Assembly (NCBI RefSeq): GCF_004010195.1
Contig: NC_057719.1
Span: 13,107,078-13,127,077 of the forward strand
Source: Chiloscyllium plagiosum
Lineage: Eukaryota
Reading direction: 5' to 3'
Length of the DNA stretch: 20,000 nucleotides
The first letter of the stretch is position 1, and every line of letters begins with the position of its first letter. Made by a program: the position numbers and the translations under genes. Under the pieces are notes generated by a model. The model saw only the letters and a program-made list of their open reading frames with translations, did not search any database and was not told the origin of the DNA. Below, piece by piece: positions 2,570 through 20,000 of this stretch.

Positions 2570-4735
2570 TCCTGATAAGTGAAAAAAGGGAGTTAGGTTG
2601 GAAGCTAAAAGGCAGGATGAGCCGAATAGTAGTCTCAGGATTGCTACCAGTGCCATGGGCTAGTGAGGCTAGGAACAGAGAGCTAGTGTAGCTGACCACA
2701 TGGTTGCAGAGATTGTGTAGGAAGGAGGGCTTCAGACATATGGATCATTGGGATACCTTCTGGGGAAGGTGGGACTGTACAAAGAGGACGGGTTGCACCT
2801 GAACTGGAGGGACACTAATACCCTGGGTGGGAGGTTTGAGAGGGCTCTTCAAGAGAGCTTAAACTAGTTTGGCAGGGCTACAGATCAGAAGATGGAGTAG
2901 CTGGTGAACGGGCAGATACAATGTGCGTGAGTCTGAAGGATAGACAGTGATAATGCAAAGTTGCAGTCAGTGTGGATGGATTGAAGCGTGTCTATTTTAA
3001 TGCAAGAAGTTTCAGAAACAAGGGTGATGAACTTATAGCATGGAATCAGTACTTGGAACTACAATGTTGTGGCCATTACCGAGACTTGGATATCACAGGG
3101 GCTGGAATGGTTTTTGGATGTTCCAGGGTTTAGATGTTTCAAACGGAATAGGGAGGGAGGTAAATGAGGTGAAGGAGTGGCATTGCTGATCAGGGATAGT
3201 ATCACAGCTGCAGAGAGGGGGGTTGTCGAGGAGGGTTTGTCTACAGAATCAGTATGGTTGGAAGTCAGAAACAGGAAAGGAAAAGTCACTTTATTGGGAG
3301 TTTTCTAGAGACCCTCCAATAGCAACAGAGACATGAAGGAGCAGATTGGGAGGCAGAGTTTGGAAAGGTGTAGCAGTAACAAGGTTGTTGTCATGGGTGA
3401 CTTCAACTTCCCTAATAATGATTGGAACCTCCTAAGTGCAAATAGTTTGGATGGAGCAGATTTTTTCAGGTATGTCCAGGAAGAATTCCTGACTCAATAT
3501 GTAGGTAGGCTGACTAGAGGGGAGGCCATATTGGATTTGGTGCTTGGCAACGAACCAACTCAGGTGTCAGATCTCTCATTGGGAGACCATTTCGATGATA
3601 GCGATCGTGACTCCCTGACCTTTACTATAGTCATGGAAAGGGACAGGAGCAGATCATATGGGGAAATATTTAACTCAGGAAGGGGGAATTACAATGCTAT
3701 TTTATGCTGTGGAGCATAAAATGGGAGCAGATATTCTCAGGGAAATGCATGACAGAAATGTAGAGGTTGTTTAGGGACTACTTGCTGCGAGTGCTGGATA
3801 GGTTTGTGTCACTGAGACAAAGAAGGAATGGTAGGGTGAAGGAATCTTGGATGACAGGAGATGTGGAACATCTAGTGAAGAGAAAGAAGGGAGCTTACTT
3901 AAGGTTGAGGAGGCAAGGATCAGACAGGGCTCTAGAGGGTTCCAAGATAGCTAGGAACCAACGAAAGTATGGATATAGGAGAGTTACAAGGAGGCATGAT
4001 AAAGCCATGGTGAGTAGGATTAAGGAAAATTCCAAGGCATTCTACATTTATGTGAGGAACAAGAGGATGGCCAGCGTGAGAGTAGGGCTGATCAGGGATA
4101 GTGGAGGGAACTTGTGCTGGAATCGGAGGAGTTGGGGAAGTCCTTAATGAATACTTTGCTTCAGTATTCACTACTGAGAGGGACATTGTTGTTTGTGAGG
4201 ACAGCATGAAACAGGTGACGTGTTAGAATAGGTGGATGTTAGGAAGGAGGATGTGCTGGAAATTTTGAAAAATATGAGGATAGATAAGTCCTCTGGGCCA
4301 ATCGAGATATACCTAAGATTACTGCGGGAAGTGAAAGAAGAGATTGCTACGCCTTTGGCAATGATCTTTGCATCCCCACTGTCCACTGGAATAGTATGAG
4401 ATGATTGGTGTGTGTCAAATGTTATTCCCTTGTTCAAGAAAGGGAAGAGGGATATTCCTGGGAATTACAGACCAGTCAGTCTTACATTGTTGGTGGGCAA
4501 ATTACTGGAAAGGATTTGGAGAGATAGGATTTATGATTATTTGGAAAAGCATAGTTTGACTGGACATAGTCAGCATGGCTTTGTGAAGGGCCGGTCATGC
4601 CTCACAAGCCTTACTGAATTCTTTGAAGATGTGACTCTTGGATAGGCACATGGATGATAGTAAAATGAAGGGTATGTTGCTTAGTTTGATCTTAGAGTAG
4701 GATAAAAGTTCAGCACAACATTGAGGGCCGAAGGG
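2570..4735 (+). mobile_element. CR1-clade LINE, 5'-truncated and internally deleted (ORF1 esterase end, ORF2 APE endonuclease and RT start, 3' UTR)
   Basis: ORF1: RIVVSGLLPVPWASEARNR...EGFRHMDHWDTFWGR...DGLHLN. ORF2: VYFNARS, VAITETW, VVMGDFNFP, AILDLVLGNE, NVIPLFKKG..PGNYRPVSLT, SQHGFVKGRSCLT. Many stops and frameshifts. Jumps at ~4633 directly into CR1 3'-end sequence. Confidence 0.95.
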
Positions 4736-5488: not shown

Positions 5489-6413
5489 GACCTGGAAGAG
5501 GGCACTGTTGATATGATCAGCAAGATGTCATGAAGATTGGTGGAGTAACAGAAAGCATAGGGGACTGTCAAAGAATACAGGAGAATACAGATAGATTGGA
5601 GAGTTGGGCGGAGAAGTGGTGGATGGAGTTCAATCCGGGCAAATGTGAGGTGATGCATTTTGGGAAGTTTAATTCTAGAGTGAATTATACAGTAAACGGA
5701 ACAGCCTTGGGAAAACTTGATGAGCAGAGTCATCTGGGAGTTCAGGTTGCTACACAGGTGGATAGAGTGGTCAAGAAGGCATATGGTATGCTTGCCTTCA
5801 TTGGACGGGATATTGAGTATAAGAGCTGGCAGGTCATGTTAAAATTGTATAAGACATTGGTTCGGCTGCATTTAGAATACTGTGTACAGTTCTGGTAGCA
5901 TATTACCAAAAGGATGTGGACATTTTGGAGAGGGAGCAGAGGATGTTGCCTGGTATGGAAGGTGCTAGCTATGAAGAGAGGTTGAGTAGGTTAAATTTGT
6001 TCTCATTAAAAAAAAATGAGATTGAGGGGGAATCTGATTAAGGTTTTCAAAATCATGAAGGGTATAGACAGGGTAGATAGCGATAAGCTTTTTCCCAGGG
6101 TGAGGGGAAAATAACGAGAGGTCACGCTTTCAAAGTGAGAGGTGAAAAGATTAAGGGGGATACACACGGCAAGTACTTTACGCAGAGATGGTGGGTGTCT
6201 GGAATGCGTTGCCAGAAGAGGTGGTAGAGGCGGCATGGTAAATTCATTTAAGATGCGTCTGGTCAGATGCATGAGTAGGTGGGGAGCAGAGGGATACAGA
6301 TGCTTAGGAATTGGGCGACAGGTTTAGACAGTAGATTTGGATTGGCTCAGGCTTGGAGGGCCAAAGGGCTTGTTCCTGGGCTGTAAATTTTCTTTGTTCT
6401 TTGTTCTTGTTCT
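5489..6413 (+). mobile_element. 5'-truncated CR1-clade LINE (RT C-terminus and 3' UTR)
   Basis: KIGG...WAEKWWMEFNPGKCEVMHFG...LKLYKTLVRLHLEYCVQFW; (TTGTTCT)n tail; ATTT on both flanks. Confidence 0.95.
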
Positions 6414-6740
6414 ATTTCCAGCATCTACAGTTCTTAGTTTCATTTCAACTATCTATATTGTTAGATGCTGTTAGATCCACAAATCCCCAAATCCGATGGA
6501 GGTGTAGCATAATAGGTTCCTGTTGTTTTCGAGAATGTCAACAGATTTGAAGAATTGCAACATGGCAGCATTCAGCAGTAAAACAAAAGATTTATGTTCT
6601 CTGATGTTTTTGGAGAACAGATGATCATCAGTGTCCACATTTACCCAAACGTTTGTGTTATCACTAGTTATTCTAACTTTCCCTATGAAGGCCATTCTAT
6701 ACCCAGGATCCATTCTCATCCAATTAGCACTGTGTACCAC

Positions 6741-6912: not shown

Positions 6913-7372
6913 AATTACCCCACATTTGTATGTTACTATTTATCTCCTCACTGACTGCATTCAGCAGATGTTCAGTCAATGCAACTTCCAACAAGTATGT
7001 TGAGAGTTATTTAATGTGAGAGGCGTGAGGCTTCATAAGATGGCTACATTTTAAACTGTTTCCTTTAATTCAATGTAAAATGGAGTAGTGTGACTGTCCT
7101 GTAGTTCTACCCAAAAATAATGGTGTGTGCCTTGGCTGCCACTGGGGGAATGGGGAGCAGGGTAAATCCTGATTGCAACTCTCATGCCAGCTTTCATGCC
7201 AAATGCAAATAAGTAACAGCTGGCTTTGCTACCGTCTCATAACAATGCAGTACAACCCTGAATCACTTTGGGATATATCGAACTCCTAATTACAACACAC
7301 ATTCTTTTTTGAAAAAAAGGACATACAGACATGAGATAACTGTGAATGTAACTTCAGCGGCTGTCTGGAGAC

Positions 7373-7440
7373 AGAGAGAAAGAGAGAGAGAGAGAGAAAA
7401 AGAGAGAGAGAAAGAGAGAGAGAGAAAGAGAGAGAAAGAA

Positions 7441-7473
<33 letters not shown>

Positions 7474-7482
7474 AAGAGAGAG
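7373..7482 (+). repeat. Interrupted (GA)n polypurine microsatellite
   Basis: About 110 bp of A/G only, GA runs punctuated by AAA. Confidence 0.97.
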
Positions 7483-7636
7483 ATGCCAGCTAGACAACAA
7501 GCCAATAAAACAGAAACACAATGGATTTCAACTCGTCTGCAATGTCAAGAAACTTGAAATTGACTGTTTAACTATCAGTGCGCCACTACCTACTCTTCAT
7601 GAAAGACTGGAGAATGATCCATATATAGAGTCATAG

Positions 7637-7955
7637 AGCATGGTAGCGCAGTGGTTAGCACTGCTGTCTCACAGCGCCAGGGAGCTGGGTTCAATTCCCG
7701 CCTCAGGCAACTGTCTGTGTGGAGTTTGCACATTCTCCCCGTGTCTGTGTGGGTTTCCTCTGGGTGCTCCGGTTTCCTCCCACAGTCCAAAAATGTGCAA
7801 GTTAGGTGAATTGGCCATGCTAAATTGCCTGCAGTGTTAGGTGAAAGGGTAAATGTAGGGGAATGGGTCTGGGTGGGTTGCTCTCCGGAGGGTCGGTGTG
7901 GACTTGTTGGGCCGAAGGGCCTGTTTCCACACTGTAAGTAATCCAATCTAATCCA
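7637..7955 (+). mobile_element. HE1-type tRNA-derived V-SINE, near full length
   Basis: A box TGGTAGCGCAGTGG, B box GGTTCAATTCC, V-domain GTGTGGAGTTTGCACATTCTCCCCGTGTC...CCCACAGTCCAAA, CR1-like 3' end GGGCCGAAGGGCCTGTTTCC, (AATCT/C)n tail. Confidence 0.92.
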
Positions 7956-9358: not shown

Positions 9359-9973
9359 TGCTTGCCTTCATTGCTCAGTTCTTTGAGTAGAGGAGTTGGG
9401 ATGTCAAGTTGAGGTTATACAGGACATTGGTGAGACCTCTTCTGGAATACTGCATCCAGTTTTGTTCACCCTGTTATAAGAAAGATGCTATTCAGCTGGA
9501 GCGAGTTCAGAAGAGATTTACCAGGATGTTGCCAGTATGGAATGTTTCGGTTATAAGGAAAGACTAGATAAACTGGGACTTTATTCACTGGGGCACAAAG
9601 AAGTTGAGAAGTGACCTTAAAGAGGTTTAGAAAATCATGAGGGGTACAGATAGGGTTAATGTTCAGTGTCTTTTTTCCTCGGATGGGGGAATTCTTAAAA
9701 TGAGAGGAGAGTGATTTAAAAAAGAATGAGGGGCAAATGTTTCACACAGAGGGTGGTTGGCGTGTGGAATGAACTTCCTGAGGAAGTGGTGGGCGTGGGT
9801 CCAATTACAATGTTTAGAAGACATTTGGAGAAATATATGAATAGGAAGGGTTTGAAGGCATATGAGCCAGGAGCAGGCAGGTTGGACTAGGTTAGTTTGA
9901 GATTATGTTCAGCATGGTTTGGTTGGACCAAAGTGTCTGTTTCCCTGCTGTATATCTCCTCCAGGATTCTATG
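9359..9973 (+). mobile_element. 5'-truncated CR1 LINE
   Basis: LYRTLVRPLLEYCIQF...LERVQKRFTRMLP; 3' UTR similar to 14640-14770. Confidence 0.93.
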
Positions 9974-11121: not shown

Positions 11122-11448
11122 TAGAATAGAATAGAATCCTGACAGAGATCATTCACCCCAGTGAGTCCACAGTGAACCTCCGAATAGCAGACCCCTTCCC
11201 CACCTGCATCCCTGTAACCCTGTATTCCCCATGGCTAATCCATCTAGCCTGCACACTATGGGCAATTTTTAATGTCCAGTCTACATAATGACACATCTTT
11301 GGACTGTGGGAGAAAACCAGAGCACCCAGAGGAAACCTGTGCAGGCACAGGGTGAATGTGCAGACTCCACACAGTCACCCAAGGGTGGAATCGAACCCAG
11401 CTCCCTGTTGCTATGAGGCAGCAGAGCTAACCACTGAGTCACCGTGCC
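11122..11448 (-). mobile_element. HE1-type V-SINE
   Basis: Reverse A box/B box (CTAACCACTGAGTCACC, GGAATCGAACCC), V-domain and (TAGAA)n tail. Confidence 0.9.
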
Positions 11449-12027
11449 AACCATAACAACATGGCACAAAGCACACTTTAAATGCAATCTCCACTTAATG
11501 TGGAATCTTTTAAACATCCTCCCTAAACAAGAGCATATACTCTCGCCAGTTGCTGAGTGAGATTCCAAATGCAAGAGCTTGTATCTGGTGATCACTCCAC
11601 CAATGAATTCCCCTGCGTCTTGTGGAGCTATGTTGTGATGTGTTGGGGTGACCATTCCCCATCTCTGTGAGGGGAAATGTGACCATTAGGATGAATAAAC
11701 ACTGCAATGTTACCTGGGCAAAGTTAGTTCCTGTTGTTTTCCATGACATGGAAGTGAACAGTGAGCTCCTTTTTACAGCTTTCCGAGGAAAATTGAGTAT
11801 TGTTTATTTCGCTGAATATGTGTTGACTTTGAATCACATCGAACATGTCCTCAACTAACACTTTGATTATTAGGCAGCAGAAATTAAGAACGCTCATTTG
11901 AAAAGGGTTGCTGAGGAATTGCTAGGTGAAAAAAATTGGCAAAGAAACAGTCGGTGGGTCCCGAATGTGAATTAGAGGCAGCACTCCTCAATGTCCCATC
12001 ACTGTGCTATTGGTGTGCTGAGAAACC

Positions 12028-12148
12028 TAGAACATAGAACATAGAAGATAGAACATGACAGTGCAGTACAGGCCCTTCGGCCCTCGATGTTGCACTGACC
12101 TGTGAAACCAATCTGAAGCCCATCTAATCTACTTTATTCCATTATCAT
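12028..12148 (-). mobile_element. CR1 3' terminal fragment
   Basis: (TAGAACA)n tail followed by ACAGGCCCTTCGGCCC. Confidence 0.85.
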
Positions 12149-12260: not shown

Positions 12261-12335
12261 GAGTCATAGACGTCCAGAGCACAGAAAAAGGCTCTTCAGA
12301 CATTCGAGCCTGCACTGGTCAAAACCAATCAAACT
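12261..12335 (-). mobile_element. CR1 3' terminus (host element; remainder at 14956-15257)
   Basis: GAGTCATAGA tail, CAGAAAAAGGCTCTTCAG terminal motif; continues with TAATCCCATTTTCC at ~14961. Confidence 0.75.
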
Positions 12336-13008
12336 ATCGGAGATGGCAGTGGAGTAACTGTCGAAGATGGCGGTGGAGTAACTGTCGGAGATGGTGGTGG
12401 AGTAACTGTCGAAGATGGCGGTGGAGTAACTGTCGAAGATGGCGGTGGAGTAACTGTCGAAGATGGCAGTGGAGTAGCTGTCGAAGATGGCGGTGGAGTA
12501 ACTGTCAGAGATGGCGGTGGAGTAACAGTCGGAGATTGCGGTGGAGTAACTGTCGGAGATTGCGGTGGAGTAACTATCGAAGATGGCGGTGGAGTAACTG
12601 TCGAAGATGGCGGTGAAGTAACTGTCGAAGATGGCGGTGGAGTAACAGTCGGAGATTGCGGTGTAGTAACTGTCGAAGATGGCGGTGGAGTAACTGTCGA
12701 AGATGGCAGTGGAGTAACTATCGAAGATGGCGGTGGAGTAACTATCGGAGATGGCAGTGGAGTAACTGTCGGAGATGGCGGTGGAGTAACTGTCGGAGAT
12801 GGCGGTGGAGTAACTGTCGGAGATGGCGGTGGAGTAGCTGTCAAAGATGGCGGTGGAGTAACTGTCGAAGATGGCGGTGAAGTAACTGTCGAAGATGGCG
12901 GTGGAGTAACTGTCGGAGATGGCGGTGGAGTAACTGTCGGAGATGGCGGTGGAGTAACTGTCGGAGATGGCGGTGGAGTAACTGTCGAAGATGGCGGTGG
13001 AGTAACTG
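12332..13008 (+). repeat. Minisatellite, 28 x 24 bp, consensus AACTGTCG(A/G)AGATGGCGGTGGAGT
   Basis: Units start at 12332+24n up to 12980, with a 5-nt partial at 13004. No indels; substitution variants only. Confidence 0.98.
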
Positions 13009-13221
13009 GCAGAGGCTGGATGCCCAGAGCACGGACTTTGCCAGTCGGCCGTGAGGTGGTTGGTGGGGCCTGGGCACAACTCTGGAGGTCGCAGGCATTA
13101 TGGAGGTGGCCGGGGGGTCGGAGCTGCACTACAGCTGGGCTCTGTCAGCCTGTGGTGAGGCAATTAGTGAGCCCACAGATGGCGGTCAGCAGAGAGTCAG
13201 CAGCGCGGAGGCATGGGGATT

Positions 13222-13830
13222 GAGAGATGGAGCCCAGGGTGGGCGAGAGATCAGGCCCATGGGGGAGAGAGATCAAGCCAGTGTGGGGAGAGATCAAGCC
13301 CAGTGCAGGAGGAGAGAGATCAGGCCCAGCGCAGGGGAGAGATCAGGTTCAGGGAGGGGGGAGAGAGATTTGGCCCAGGGTGGGGGAGAGATCAGGCCCA
13401 TGGGGGAGAGAGATCGAGCCCAGTGTGGGGAGAGATCAAGCCCAGTGCAGGAGGAGAGAGATCAAGCCCAGTGCAGGAGGAGAGAGATCAGGCCCAGTGC
13501 AGGAGGGGAGAGATCAGGCCCAGCGCAGGTAAGAGATCAGGTTCAGGGAGGGGGGAGAGAGATTTGGCCCAGGGTGAGGGAGAGATCAGGTCCAGGGTGG
13601 GGAGAGGTTGAGCCCAGTGTTGGGGGTAGAGAGATCAGGTCCAGGGTGGGGAGAGGTTGAGCCCAGTGTTGGGGGTAGAGAGATCAGGCCCAGGGTGGGT
13701 GGGGAGAGGTTGAGCCCAGTGTTGGGGGTAGAGAGATCAGGCCCAGGGTGGGGAGAGGTTGAGCCCAGATTTGGGGGTAGAGAGATCAAGCCCAGGGTAG
13801 GGAAAGAGAGATATAACCCAGGGTGGGGGT
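13222..13830 (+). repeat. G-rich VNTR (~21-28-bp units, core GAGAGATCAGGCCCAG) with higher-order repeats
   Basis: Recurrent GAGAGATCA(G/A)GCCCA. A multi-unit block starting ~13249 recurs at ~13391, and a two-unit ~49-bp block is repeated four times in 13582-13790. Confidence 0.93.
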
Positions 13831-13889
13831 GAGTGGGATCGAGGCCTGTGCCTGGGCAGAGCGATGGATCCCTCGTGGGGAAAGCCCAA

Positions 13890-14783
13890 ACAGCGAAGAA
13901 GGTAACCTCAGAGTACAACGGGATGTTGATCAGATGGGCCAATGGGCTGAGAAGTGGCAGATGGAGTTTAATTTAGATTAATACGAAGTGCTGTAGTTTG
14001 GGTAAGTAAATCTTAGCAGGACTTATACACTTAATTGTAAGGTCCTAGCGAGTGTTGCAGGACAAAGAGACCTTAGAGTGCAGGTTTGTAGCTCCTTGTA
14101 AGTGAATTTGCAGGTAGATAGGATAGTGCAGAAGGCGTTTGGTATATTTTCCTTTATTGGTCAGAGTGTTGAGTACAGGAGTGGGGAGGTCATGTTGCAG
14201 CTGTACAGGACACTGGTTGGACCACTTTTGGAATATTGTGTGCAATTTTGGTCTCCTTCCTATTGGAAGGATGATGTGAAACTTGAAAGGATTCAGAAAA
14301 AATTTGCAAGGACGTTTGCCAGTATTGGAGGATTTGAGCTATAGGGAGAGGTTGAATAGGCTAGGGCTGTTTTCCCTGGAGCGGAAGCTGAGGGGTGACC
14401 TTATAGAGGTTTATAAAATCATGAAGGACATGGATAGGGTAAATAGACAAAGTCTTTTTTCCTGGAGTGGGGGAGTCCAGAACTAGAAGGCATAGGTTTA
14501 AGGTGAGAGGGGACAGATAGAAAATAGACCGAAGGGGCAGCTTTTTCACGTAGAGGGTGGTATGGGTATGAAATGAGCTGCTAGAGGAAGTGGTGGAGGC
14601 TGGTACAATTGCAACATTTAAGAGGCATTTGGATGGGTATATGAATAGGAAGGGTTTGGAGGGATATGGGCCGGGTGCTGGCAGGTGGGACTAGATTGGA
14701 TTGGGATATCTGGTCGGCATGGACGAGTTGGACCGAAGGGTCTGTTTCCGTGCTGTACATCTCTATGACTCTCTGAATCTATA
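13890..14783 (+). mobile_element. 5'-truncated CR1 (HER1-type) LINE, relatively well preserved
   Basis: DQMGQWAEKWQMEFNL...VMLQLYRTLVGPLLEYCVQFWSP...LRGDLIEVYKIM; (CTCTATGA)n-like tail. Confidence 0.96.
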
Positions 14784-14955
14784 ACTGCAGGCCCACGGCT
14801 AAAGAAAAACTGTAATGTTGAACTTTTAACTTTTTTCCTTACTCTTCTACTTTTTAACCTAAGATTTTGTACTAGGATGAGGCCAAGAATGATGACTTTG
14901 TCCCTGTGCTTGAGTATTCGTGACAGTAAAACCTAACTCTAATTCTAATTCTAAC
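14784..14955 (+). mobile_element. 3' end of the composite element
   Basis: T-rich segment, GTGACAGTAAAA (degenerate poly(A)-signal-like), (CTAATT)n tail ending in AACT. Confidence 0.65.
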
Positions 14956-15257
14956 TCTTTTAATCCCATTTTCCTGCATCATAGTCCTCTCTGCCTTGAC
15001 ATCGCAAGTTCACAACTAAATACCTCTTAAATGTTGTGGGGGTCTCTGCCTGTACCACCCTTACAGGAAATGAGTTCCAGATTCCCATCACACCCTGGGT
15101 GAAAATATTTCCCCTCATGTCCCCTCTAAACCCCTTACCTTAAATCTATGCACCCGGTTGTTGATCCCTCCACCAAGGGAAGAAGTTTCTTCCTGCCTTC
15201 CCTGTCTATAACCCTCATAGATTTAAACATCTCAATCATGTCACCCCCTCACTCTCC
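14956..15257 (-). mobile_element. CR1 3' fragment (host of the composite element)
   Basis: GAGTTCCAGATTCCCA...CCCTCATAGATTTAAACATCTCAATCATGTCACCCC is the reverse of the GDMIEMFKSMR motif. Confidence 0.88.
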
Positions 15258-15309
15258 TTAGCCTGTATGCAGGTGATGTGTCATCCATCCATCTTTCTAC
15301 TTCTAGCTG

Positions 15310-15690
15310 TGATGTGGAGGTGCTGGCATTGGACTGGGTGGACAAGGTTAAAAATCACGCAACACCAGGTTATAGTCCACAGGTTTATTTGGAAGCACTA
15401 GCTTTCAGAGCTTCATCAGGTGGTTGTGGGACAGGAATGTAAGACACAGAATTTATAGCAAGCGATTACAGCGTCATGCAACTGAAATGATATATTGAAC
15501 AGACCTGGATTGCTGTTAAGTCTCTCACTTTTTAGAATGATAACTGAGCTGAGATGTCACTTTATTTTTTACAAAATCTTAAGTTATCTGGAGAACGTGA
15601 CTCAAAAGAAGTTTTAGCATTTACATATTAATGAACCGAAACTTGCAACCTATTCTAATAGGTGCAAGATTTAAAGCAATCTAGGTTTGT
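15310..15690 (-). mobile_element. Penelope-like terminal fragment of another family, with collapsed hammerhead
   Basis: Minus 15420-15398 reads C-CTGATGA-AGCTCT-GAAAGCTAG: core and AGCT palindrome retained, stem II largely lost. Confidence 0.65.
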
Positions 15691-18161: not shown

Positions 18162-18563
18162 TAATAGGGGAACTGGAGGTTTGCAACCGTGAGACTATTG
18201 TTTAAGAAAGGGGCGAAGGAAATCCTAGGAAACTGCCGACCCATTAGCTTGATGTCAATGCTGGGAAAACTGATGGAGGCCAGATTATGGGATAAGGTAA
18301 ATATACACTTAGAGAAAACTCAGTTAATACTAGACAGTCAATGTGGCTTTGTCAAGAAAAGGTCATGTTTGACGAATTTGATTGAGTCCTTTGATGAGGC
18401 AATACAGGCAGTGGATAGGGGAAGTGATGTAAGTGTTGTATATTGGGACTTTCAGAAAGCATTTGATATGGTGCCACATGGCAGGTGGATTAGTAAATTA
18501 GAAATGTTTGGGATTGATGGGTTCTTGGCAACATGGATGAGAGGTTGGCTAACTGATCAAAAA

Positions 18564-18629
18564 GGAGAAAGTGAGGACTGCAGGTGCTGGAGATCCGAGC
18601 TGAAAATGTGTTGCTGTGCTTTTCCAGCG
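18564..18629 (-). mobile_element. 66-bp PLE-derived insert with 14-bp TSD
   Basis: TAACTGATCAAAAA (18550-18563) / TAAATGATCAAAAA (18630-18643). Confidence 0.75.
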
Positions 18630-18976
18630 TAAATGATCAAAAACACAAGGTAGGTATAGATGGGCATGTCTCAGACTGAAAACAATTTGAACGTAGTGTT
18701 CCTCAGGGATTGATGTTGGGACCCTCGCTTTTTCTGATTTCTATGAACAATTTAGAGATAAGTGTTGAGGGTAAAATCTCGAAATTTGCAGATGATACTA
18801 AGCAGGGAGATTAGTCAATTGTGACGATGATGCTGAGTGACTTCAGAGAGACATGGACAAATTGGCAGATGAATTTCATTGCAGAGGAATGTGAGGTAAT
18901 GCATTTTGGTAGAAGAAACAAGGAGAGACAATACAGGCTCAATGGTACAACCCTGAGGGGAGTACAGGAGCAGAGG

Positions 18977-19065
18977 AAGGAGGGCTCATGCCCGAAACGT
19001 CAATTCTCCTGCGCCTTGGATGCTGCCTGACCTGCTGAGCTTTTCCAGCAACACATTTTCAGCTC
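18977..19065 (+). mobile_element. PLE-derived insert with truncated hammerhead
   Basis: AGGGCTCATGCCCGAAACGTCAATTCTCCTGC...GATGCTGCCTGACCTGCTGAGCTTTTCCAGC; the CTGATGA box is missing. Confidence 0.8.
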
Positions 19066-19431
19066 ATTCTCTGAAGGTGGCCAGGCAATGTGAAACAGTT
19101 GTTATGAACTGTTATAGGATCCTTGAGTTAACAAATAGAGGCATAGAGTATAAAAGCAAGGAAGTGATGCTGCACCTGGACAAATCACGGGTCAGATCAG
19201 TTTTGAGTACCTTATTTAAGGAAGGATGAGTATGCCAGGGCTTTCAGTGAGGGAGATGTAATGAACAGAATCATTGCTGGTGTGTCTTTGGTTACTGAGT
19301 TGATCATTGTCAGTAAGGTTGATTGAAGTGTGTTTTTTTTTAATGACTCTGACGATGAGGGATGTGATGGGGAGAGCTGCTGGTGAGTTCTTGAGGCTAA
19401 GGCCATCAGACAACAAGTCTTGACTACAGCA

Positions 19432-19747
19432 AGCTCACAGCGTGAGGGACTGGGGTTCGATTCCAGTTGCCTTGGGTGACTGTCTGTGTGGAGTTTGCAC
19501 ATTCTCCCTGTGTCTGTATGTGTTTCCTCCGGGTGCTCTGGTTACCTCCCACAGTCCAAGGATGTGTGGGTTAGGTGAACTGGCCACGCTAAATTGTCCA
19601 TAGTGTTCAGGGATGTGTAGGTTCGGTGCATTAATCAGGGGTAAATGTAGAGCAATAGGATCCGAGTGGGTTACTGTTCGGAGGGTCATGTGGACTTGTT
19701 GGGCTGAAGGGCCTGGTTCCACACTGTAGGGATTCTAATATTCTATG
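19432..19747 (+). mobile_element. HE1-type V-SINE, 5'-truncated
   Basis: B box GGTTCGATTCC, V-domain and CR1-like end; similar to 7670-7940; A box absent. Confidence 0.9.
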
Positions 19748-19790: not shown

Positions 19791-20000
19791 GAGGTAAAAA
19801 CAATGACTGCAGATGCTGGAAACTAGATTCTGGATTAGTGGTGCTGGAAGAGCACAGCAGTTCAGGCAGCATCCAAGGAGCAGCGAAATCGACGTTTCGG
19901 GCAAAAGCCCTTCATCAAGAATAAAGGCAGAGACCCGGAAGGGTGGAGAGATAAGCTAGAGGAGGGTGGGGATGGGGAGAAAGTAGCATAGAGTACAATG
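19791..20000 (-). mobile_element. Penelope-like element terminus, runs off the window
   Basis: Similar to 372-488. Minus 19918-19891 reads TTGATGA-A-GGGCTTTTGCCC-GAAACGTC, a hammerhead with a C3-to-U change. Confidence 0.85.

Follow-up and report, generated by a model that had tools for sequence, protein, structure and literature searches.

A probable protein-less insertion with Rex1-like end motifs and two minisatellites in an old CR1 of Chiloscyllium plagiosum

Non-autonomous derivatives of long interspersed elements (LINEs) are a known kind of retroelement. In a 2018 survey, bipartite derivatives that lack an open reading frame (ORF) are described from four clades only, RTE, Ingi, Vingi and R2 (PMC5786205), and PMC7245038 is also cited for bipartite non-autonomous LINEs. 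RIME, NARTc, Bov-A, RTESINE and the Vingi derivatives belong to this kind; they carry LINE termini, have no RNA polymerase III (Pol III) head, and are presumed to be transcribed by Pol II (PMC5786205). Here we describe an ORF-less element that interrupts a CR1 copy in a 20,000-nt stretch of the Chiloscyllium plagiosum genome (contig NC_057719.1, positions 13,107,078 to 13,127,077), hereafter the window. It is probably one old protein-less insertion with Rex1-like end motifs, resembling the SVA elements of primates in outline only.

The 3' end of Rex1 is described as a conserved untranslated region with an oligonucleotide repeat after it (PMC6274825), and in a sea anemone as a hairpin, AATAAA and (CTAT)n (PMC3472496, supplement). 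Some non-autonomous elements are paired with LINEs of the CR1 group. SINE2-5_NV, a tRNA-headed Rex1 passenger of the sea anemone, uses the 3' end of Rex1-24_NV (PMC3747384), and shark HE1 is paired with HER1 (PMC3472496, supplement). SVA, LAVA, PVA and FVA are described as hominoid-specific, are mobilised by L1, and consist in part of a CT-hexamer/Alu-like 5' region and a variable number tandem repeat (VNTR) with 30-50-bp units (PMC4432496).

Like the bipartite LINEs, the element in the window is ORF-less, is without a Pol III head, has LINE-type termini and presumably uses Pol II, but its likeness is to Rex1, and its long, GC-rich body is prone to forming minisatellites. Several elasmobranch Rex1 elements (ScyCan_Rex1-2 and -3, HypSab_Rex1-6 and LeuEri_Rex1-1) share with it a 5'-terminal motif of the AAGATGGCG type whose second half resembles GGCGACT, and like it have T-rich and GC-rich 5' regions that are sometimes tandemly repeated. 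Rex1 is also described as ending in a microsatellite, as here (PMC6274825), and the tail resembles the sea-anemone Rex1 end in having a hairpin, weak here, an AATAAA-like signal and a microsatellite. Unlike Rex1, the element has no endonuclease/reverse transcriptase frame, and it carries the motif several times, once before its 3' end. SINE2-5_NV and HE1 borrow the 3' end of a CR1-group LINE but have tRNA-derived Pol III heads, unlike the element.

With SVA, LAVA, PVA and FVA the element shares a 5' tandem repeat, a central GC-rich VNTR with higher-order structure, and a lack of autonomy. However, its VNTR units are mostly 21-27 bp long (with a 49-bp dimer period) rather than 30-50 bp, and a SINE-R is absent. 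Mobilisation by L1 leaves a poly(A) tail and a long duplication, whereas this element ends in a CTAA(C/T)T x4 tail and has a duplication of ~6 bp. Because it lacks both these L1 hallmarks and the CT-hexamer/Alu-like 5' region, the element is not a member of SVA. The SVA-like architecture proposed in a first-pass annotation of the window finds no support beyond outline, since an endogenous retrovirus-derived part is also missing, the 24-bp array appears to have grown at the locus, and the linker is near single-copy. The analogy with SVA is thus loose, and the gain lies in the link to Rex1. In the literature searched, which takes in few subscription papers and few Repbase Reports, we found no non-autonomous Rex1 element or VNTR composite of sharks, and no Rex1-based non-autonomous derivative that lacks a Pol III head; the family may already be deposited in Dfam or Repbase.

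Layout of the insertion

The host is an older CR1 on the minus strand, split at 12337/14953. Its 3' terminal piece (12261-12337) can be aligned with further CR1 copies of the window at their 3' ends, and its upstream continuation (14953-15260) was identified by alignment to in-window CR1 copies. When the two pieces were aligned separately to four in-window paralogues, one of which is too short for the right piece, they met or slightly overlapped on the other three. On the best of these, the copy at 9790-9965, the right piece reaches as far as reference position 108 while the left one starts at 103, an overlap of 5-6 nt; they meet at 96 and 92 on the nested CR1 copy described below, and at 103 and 92 on the copy at 6230-6415. 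The host CR1 is therefore contiguous, as the first-pass annotation had assumed.

That annotation had also noted AACT on both sides of the insertion. The tetranucleotide is indeed present on both, with the right one at 14953-14956, one base off the position of ~14952-14955 given earlier. The likely target-site duplication consists of AACTAT on the left (12332-12337) and AACTCT on the right (14953-14958), which are identical at five of six positions. However, the left copy also begins unit 1 of the 24-bp array and the right copy overlaps the last tail unit, so the duplication is not cleanly separable from microhomology.

Between these copies, all on the plus strand, we found a 24-bp array, a GC-rich spacer, a G-rich VNTR, a T-rich segment and a microsatellite tail, each in the place previously assigned to it. 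The 24-bp minisatellite (12332-13008) has 28 units and probably expanded in place; Tandem Repeats Finder (TRF), which was used to call tandem arrays, gives 28.2 copies with 92% matches. The unit contains AAGATGGCG, which is exact in 13 of the 28 units. The spacer (13009-13221, ~210 bp) has a GC content of 64% and a further AGATGGCGGT at about 13177. It is followed by the G-rich minisatellite 2 (13222 to ~13830), whose units, parsed by hand, are mostly 21-27 bp and show higher-order duplications. TRF places it at 13222-13846 with periods of 26, 49, 102 and 194, and its higher-order blocks are near-identical (137/141 and 49/49 aligned bases). A linker (13831-13889) ends the first part of the body.

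The linker is followed by a later, 5'-truncated CR1-type insertion on the plus strand (~13890-14782), recognised by alignment to window copies and by read depth, which leaps from tens to 10^5-10^7 across it. It is flanked by AAC (13889-13891 and 14783-14785). The body resumes at 14783-14874, a dispersed repeat in which a unit resembling those of the minisatellite, CAGGCCCACGG (14788-14798), precedes a T-rich stretch; the minisatellite-2 motif thus returns 5 bp past the nested CR1. A decayed Rex1-type 5'-terminal motif follows at 14875-14897. The 3' terminus (14898-14956), also a dispersed repeat, comprises a weak hairpin, GTGACAGTAAA (14920-14930) and, from 14933 to 14956, a CTAA(C/T)T unit repeated four times.

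The insert measures 1733 bp when the nested CR1 is left out, in agreement with the ~1.7-kb non-autonomous element inferred previously. Its ORFs are derived from repeats only and include no apurinic/apyrimidinic endonuclease or reverse transcriptase frame; Pfam searches of three frames yielded no family in any of them, and a 201-amino-acid frame over the spacer and VNTR matched none of 4478 protein candidates. Two protein matches of a 72-amino-acid spacer frame were to unrelated repetitive proteins and were rejected. Long open frames over the 24-bp array were likewise rejected as genes, and they arise because the unit length is divisible by three. The earlier observation that Pol III boxes are lacking was borne out: we detected no A box in 12332-13889 or 14784-14958, ARAGORN detected no tRNA in the element, and Rfam gave no relevant match, including to 7SL. 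B-box-like matches in the element stem from minisatellite units and from a single site in the linker. With these patterns, a SINE-like repeat elsewhere in the window does yield an A/B pair, at 7644/7689. A sub-threshold Rfam match to U6 (E 0.24) inside the nested CR1 was taken as chance.

Rex1-type motifs and the dispersed tail

We compared the element with the CR1-group consensus sequences of vertebrates in Table S2 of PMC13343379 (1,004 rows, first 400 nt of each), tallying motifs by hand. AAGATGGCG is found in 54 rows (34 Rex1, 19 L2, 1 Crack, 0 CR1 and 0 Zenon), 52 of which have it at the 5' end or close to it, and none of the 16 whale-shark CR1 rows starts with it. In the consensus unit of the 24-bp array, AAGATGGCG begins 2-3 nt past the left duplication, where the 5' terminus is expected. 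The motif at the possible Pol II-type 5' end first suggested for this element matches the 5' terminus of Rex1 and of some L2 elements. We presume that AAGATGGCG is a YY1 site. YY1 and promoters are not mentioned in the main text of PMC13343379.

Other matches extend this resemblance. A stingray Rex1 starts with the motif followed by GTAACTGGC, and the same order occurs at 12988-13010 of the window; the GTAACTGGC 9-mer is present in only two Table S2 rows, the other being an unclassified newt row. Catshark and stingray Rex1 rows yield a two-part motif, AGATGGCGCC, 5-7 nt and GGCGACT, which was scanned over 39,948 window positions with CpG decay allowed and with 2000 shuffles. The best match is at 10-32 (15 of 17 positions; reached in 1 of 2000 shuffles), and the second-best, with 14/17, begins at 13225, where minisatellite 2 has its first unit. 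At 14875 the score is 13/17, equal to that of seven other sites in the top 10 (25/2000 shuffles). The 11-mers CAGGCCCATGG and CAGGCCCACGG, from minisatellite 2 and the resumed body, are found in a single row, a skate Rex1, where they are in tandem. A T-rich 12-mer occurs in two rows, both in Rex1 5' regions. Rex1-type motifs are thus present on one strand at the start, middle and end of the element.

A related tail had been proposed at 1-105. This plus-strand segment appears to be a diverged relative's 3' end, truncated where the window begins, with the Rex1 motif at 10-32, a similar 3' terminus and an ATTCA-type tail. In both tails, a decayed Rex1-type 5' terminus lies ~25-35 nt upstream of a GTGACA end. 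The relationship is not significant with plain scoring (84 of 1000 shuffles reach the score) and becomes significant with transition-tolerant scoring, which was chosen afterwards: the score is then reached in 2 of 3000 shuffles of single bases and in 10 of 3000 shuffles of doublets, and by none of 780 real window segments. The tail at 1-105 adjoins a minus-strand CR1 fragment (~106-300) that is 78% like the host at 15175-15247. That both tails abut minus-strand CR1 may hint at a target preference.

Read depth was used to gauge dispersal. Three DNA runs, X1, X10 and X12 (one from organism A and two from its relative B), and one RNA run were mapped at 80% likeness to 13831-15330, which covers the linker, nested CR1 and tail. 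Depth is not copy number, and ratios alone were used. Mean depth over the linker (13831-13880) is 12.8, 23.8 and 31.6 in X1, X10 and X12, respectively, compared with 2487, 776 and 1767 at 14831-14880 and 865, 285 and 695 at 14881-14930. Near-unique positions have depths of 19.4, 15.2 and 23.8 (position 15259) and 35.4, 4.55 and 11.6 (position 15275). The last 50 bp before the microsatellite are thus 68x, 12x and 22x deeper than the linker; the whole tail is at ~20-170x the near-unique level, and the linker at 0.4-5x. In the RNA run, mean depth is 1.3-4.1 in tail bins and 0 in the linker, which is too little to interpret.

The tail therefore belongs to a dispersed family in both organisms, and the 12- to 68-fold ratio indicates that most of its copies are not preceded by the linker at 80% likeness. 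Each of three circumstances could account for this: truncation, bodies that vary, or the shortness of this 59-bp segment at the edge of the mapped stretch. The dispersed family suggested earlier is accordingly supported for the 3' part, whereas the co-occurrence of the modules elsewhere was not confirmed. Contigs of organism B that match 15071-15330 (14 differing letters in ~260) end short of the insertion junction.

Four tail motifs have no match within the first 400 nt of the PMC13343379 supplement rows, beyond which the 3' ends lie. Seven metagenome matches of a 19-nt tail motif were rejected as chance, because the likeness spans 19-21 nt alone. This motif has no match in viral contigs, and longer tail patterns have none in viral contigs or GTDB genomes.

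Growth of the array and competing explanations

Several features of the 24-bp array indicate that it was expanded or homogenised in place after the insertion. Non-CpG changes confined to a single unit are few (1 observed, compared with ~30 expected at the divergence of the nested CR1), and six of the seven types of non-CpG variant are common to several units. The array has kept 49 of 56 CpGs, in a window whose CpG observed/expected ratio is 0.32, and units 1 and 18 have the same sequence, down to the A within the left duplication. The nested CR1, which was inserted into the element and is therefore younger, differs from its family majority at no fewer than 36 sites in 679 bp, or at least 5.3%; this yardstick is a distance to a mixed-subfamily majority, and may overstate age if the nested CR1 belongs to a minor subfamily. 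A CpG-decay clock on the nested CR1 was rejected, as there are no CpG transitions among these differences in the listed rows. The AACT of the target marks the start of the array, and an AACT within the element marks its end. Short direct repeats can give rise to minisatellites between them, and slippage between these two sites could have seeded the array.

Our favoured explanation, which we consider slightly more likely than not, is that a plus-strand, ORF-less retroelement derived from Rex1 was copied in trans by a Rex1-type LINE, and that its GC-rich body swelled into minisatellites. Its RNA would begin at the Rex1-like 5' motif, probably from an internal Pol II promoter. At the other end, a further 5' motif, now decayed, and the LINE-type 3' end to which it is joined, bearing an AATAAA-like signal and a microsatellite, would form a 3' cassette that a LINE reverse transcriptase could recognise; the assignment of this end to the Rex1 type reflects a likeness of architecture. 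Target-primed reverse transcription into the old CR1, with AACT common to the tail unit and the target, would have left the ~6-bp duplication. A different CR1 presumably landed in the body later. The first ~24 bp would have slipped into 28 copies, possibly seeded by the target AACT and the AACT 24 bp inside, and the GC-rich body would have expanded too. The data themselves establish the layout, the continuity of the host, the motif matches, the dispersal of the tail and the youth of the array; the driver, promoter and sequence of events are inferred.

Some observations weigh against this explanation. The motif matches are all short (9-17 positions), and those for GTAACTGGC, the two-part motif, CAGGCCCATGG, CAGGCCCACGG and the T-rich 12-mer use motifs picked after the rows had been seen, so that their counts show rarity and are not independent tests. 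Array units reach only 12/17 on the two-part motif (158/2000 shuffles). The sole whale-shark Rex1 row in Table S2 is without its 5' end, and 18 L2 rows, including two skate elements, likewise start with AAGATGGCG. The Rex1 comparison covers the 5' 400 nt, and the 3' ends of shark and ray Rex1 elements lie beyond. The hairpins of the tails fold no better than shuffled sequences (z -1.06 to +0.41). A second full-length copy was not seen, the linker being near single-copy in the three DNA runs at 80% likeness or more, and the joint 13889 to 14784 is absent among the joints listed, in tables of joints and loose ends dominated by CR1 reads. The possible overstatement of age by the 5.3% yardstick belongs here as well.

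Other explanations account for parts of these data. The array, spacer, central VNTR and tail might travel as the fixed modules of a true multi-copy VNTR-composite family convergent on SVA. All modules do share one polarity within one duplication, and both organisms have reads over the linker, with up to ~5x single-contig depth in one run. A lamprey Rex1 row with an internal tandem array after the 5' motif, and an L2 row of Table S2 with the 5' motif twice in tandem, show that such arrays can be family traits. The linker comparison itself concerns 59 bp at the edge of a mapped stretch that excludes the arrays and spacer. Nonetheless, the much greater depth of the tail and an array that looks much younger than the nested CR1 make such a family unlikely, and the protein searches with the spacer frames, weak tests in this regard, gave no second copy.

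We also regard as improbable the idea that a 5'-truncated copy of the tail family, a CR1 and a minisatellite-bearing insert are separate pieces joined by successive insertion or rearrangement. The contiguous host halves, the same-strand Rex1-type motifs from start to end, and the return of the minisatellite-2 motif just past the nested CR1 all argue for one element. In favour of separate pieces are the low linker depth, the lack of a listed joint across the nested CR1, and the fact that the AACT at both ends also belongs to adjoining repeat units; moreover, taken singly, neither the 3-bp AAC repeat nor the 11-bp unit that follows the nested CR1 is strong evidence (p 0.02-0.05, uncorrected, 42 comparisons). 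Finally, the same single non-autonomous element could have had an L2 or Crack element starting with AAGATGGCG as its parent and driver. L2 elements also end in microsatellites, and the 19 L2 rows and one Crack row that carry the motif include two skate L2s. However, it is Rex1 rows that hold the longer matches (the second half of the motif, GTAACTGGC, CAGGCCCA(C/T)GG and the T-rich 12-mer), the newt GTAACTGGC row being the one exception, and we judge an L2 or Crack parent to be very unlikely.

If the trans-copied Rex1 derivative that we favour is representative, sharks might carry an undescribed group of Pol II-type, ORF-less Rex1 parasites that combine a Rex1 5' start, a minimal cassette of 5' and 3' ends and a GC-rich body that breeds VNTRs, although this generalisation is tentative and rather doubtful. 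If true, Rex1 would be a fifth LINE clade that makes bipartite ORF-less derivatives, beyond the four of the 2018 survey, and a VNTR-bearing non-autonomous retroelement convergent on SVA would exist outside primates. Confirmation would also give a name to part of the unclassified repeat content of sharks, suggest that the cis-signals for Rex1 mobilisation are the ~25-nt 5' motif and the ~50-nt 3' end, and provide a case in which the 5' end of a retroelement itself gave rise to a minisatellite at the insertion junction. These implications, which stem from one locus and short motif matches, will mainly interest transposon specialists.

Surrounding repeats

The window is rich in fragments of LINEs and short interspersed elements (SINEs); the CR1, HE1-like and Penelope-like labels used for them are our assumptions from general features of these families. 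At 12024-12148, ~110 bp left of the host 3' end, there is a further minus-strand CR1 3' end, whose tail is (AACATAG)n. Long decayed CR1 coding fragments are found at 2740-4630 and 18170-19250, the latter broken by two short repeats at ~18570-18630 and 18980-19065. Three copies of a SINE-like repeat, 76-78% alike, are located at 7638-7947, 11248-11447 (minus strand) and 19434-19739, and we take them to be HE1-like. Short repeats at 371-489, 18981-19054 and 19806-19922 are 85-88% alike and are presumably Penelope-type tail ends.

A 27-codon open frame flanked by AG and GT at 1298-1379 could be a host exon; the PDB matches of this frame include none below E 0.84. A (GA)n microsatellite with 58 copies occupies 7368-7483.

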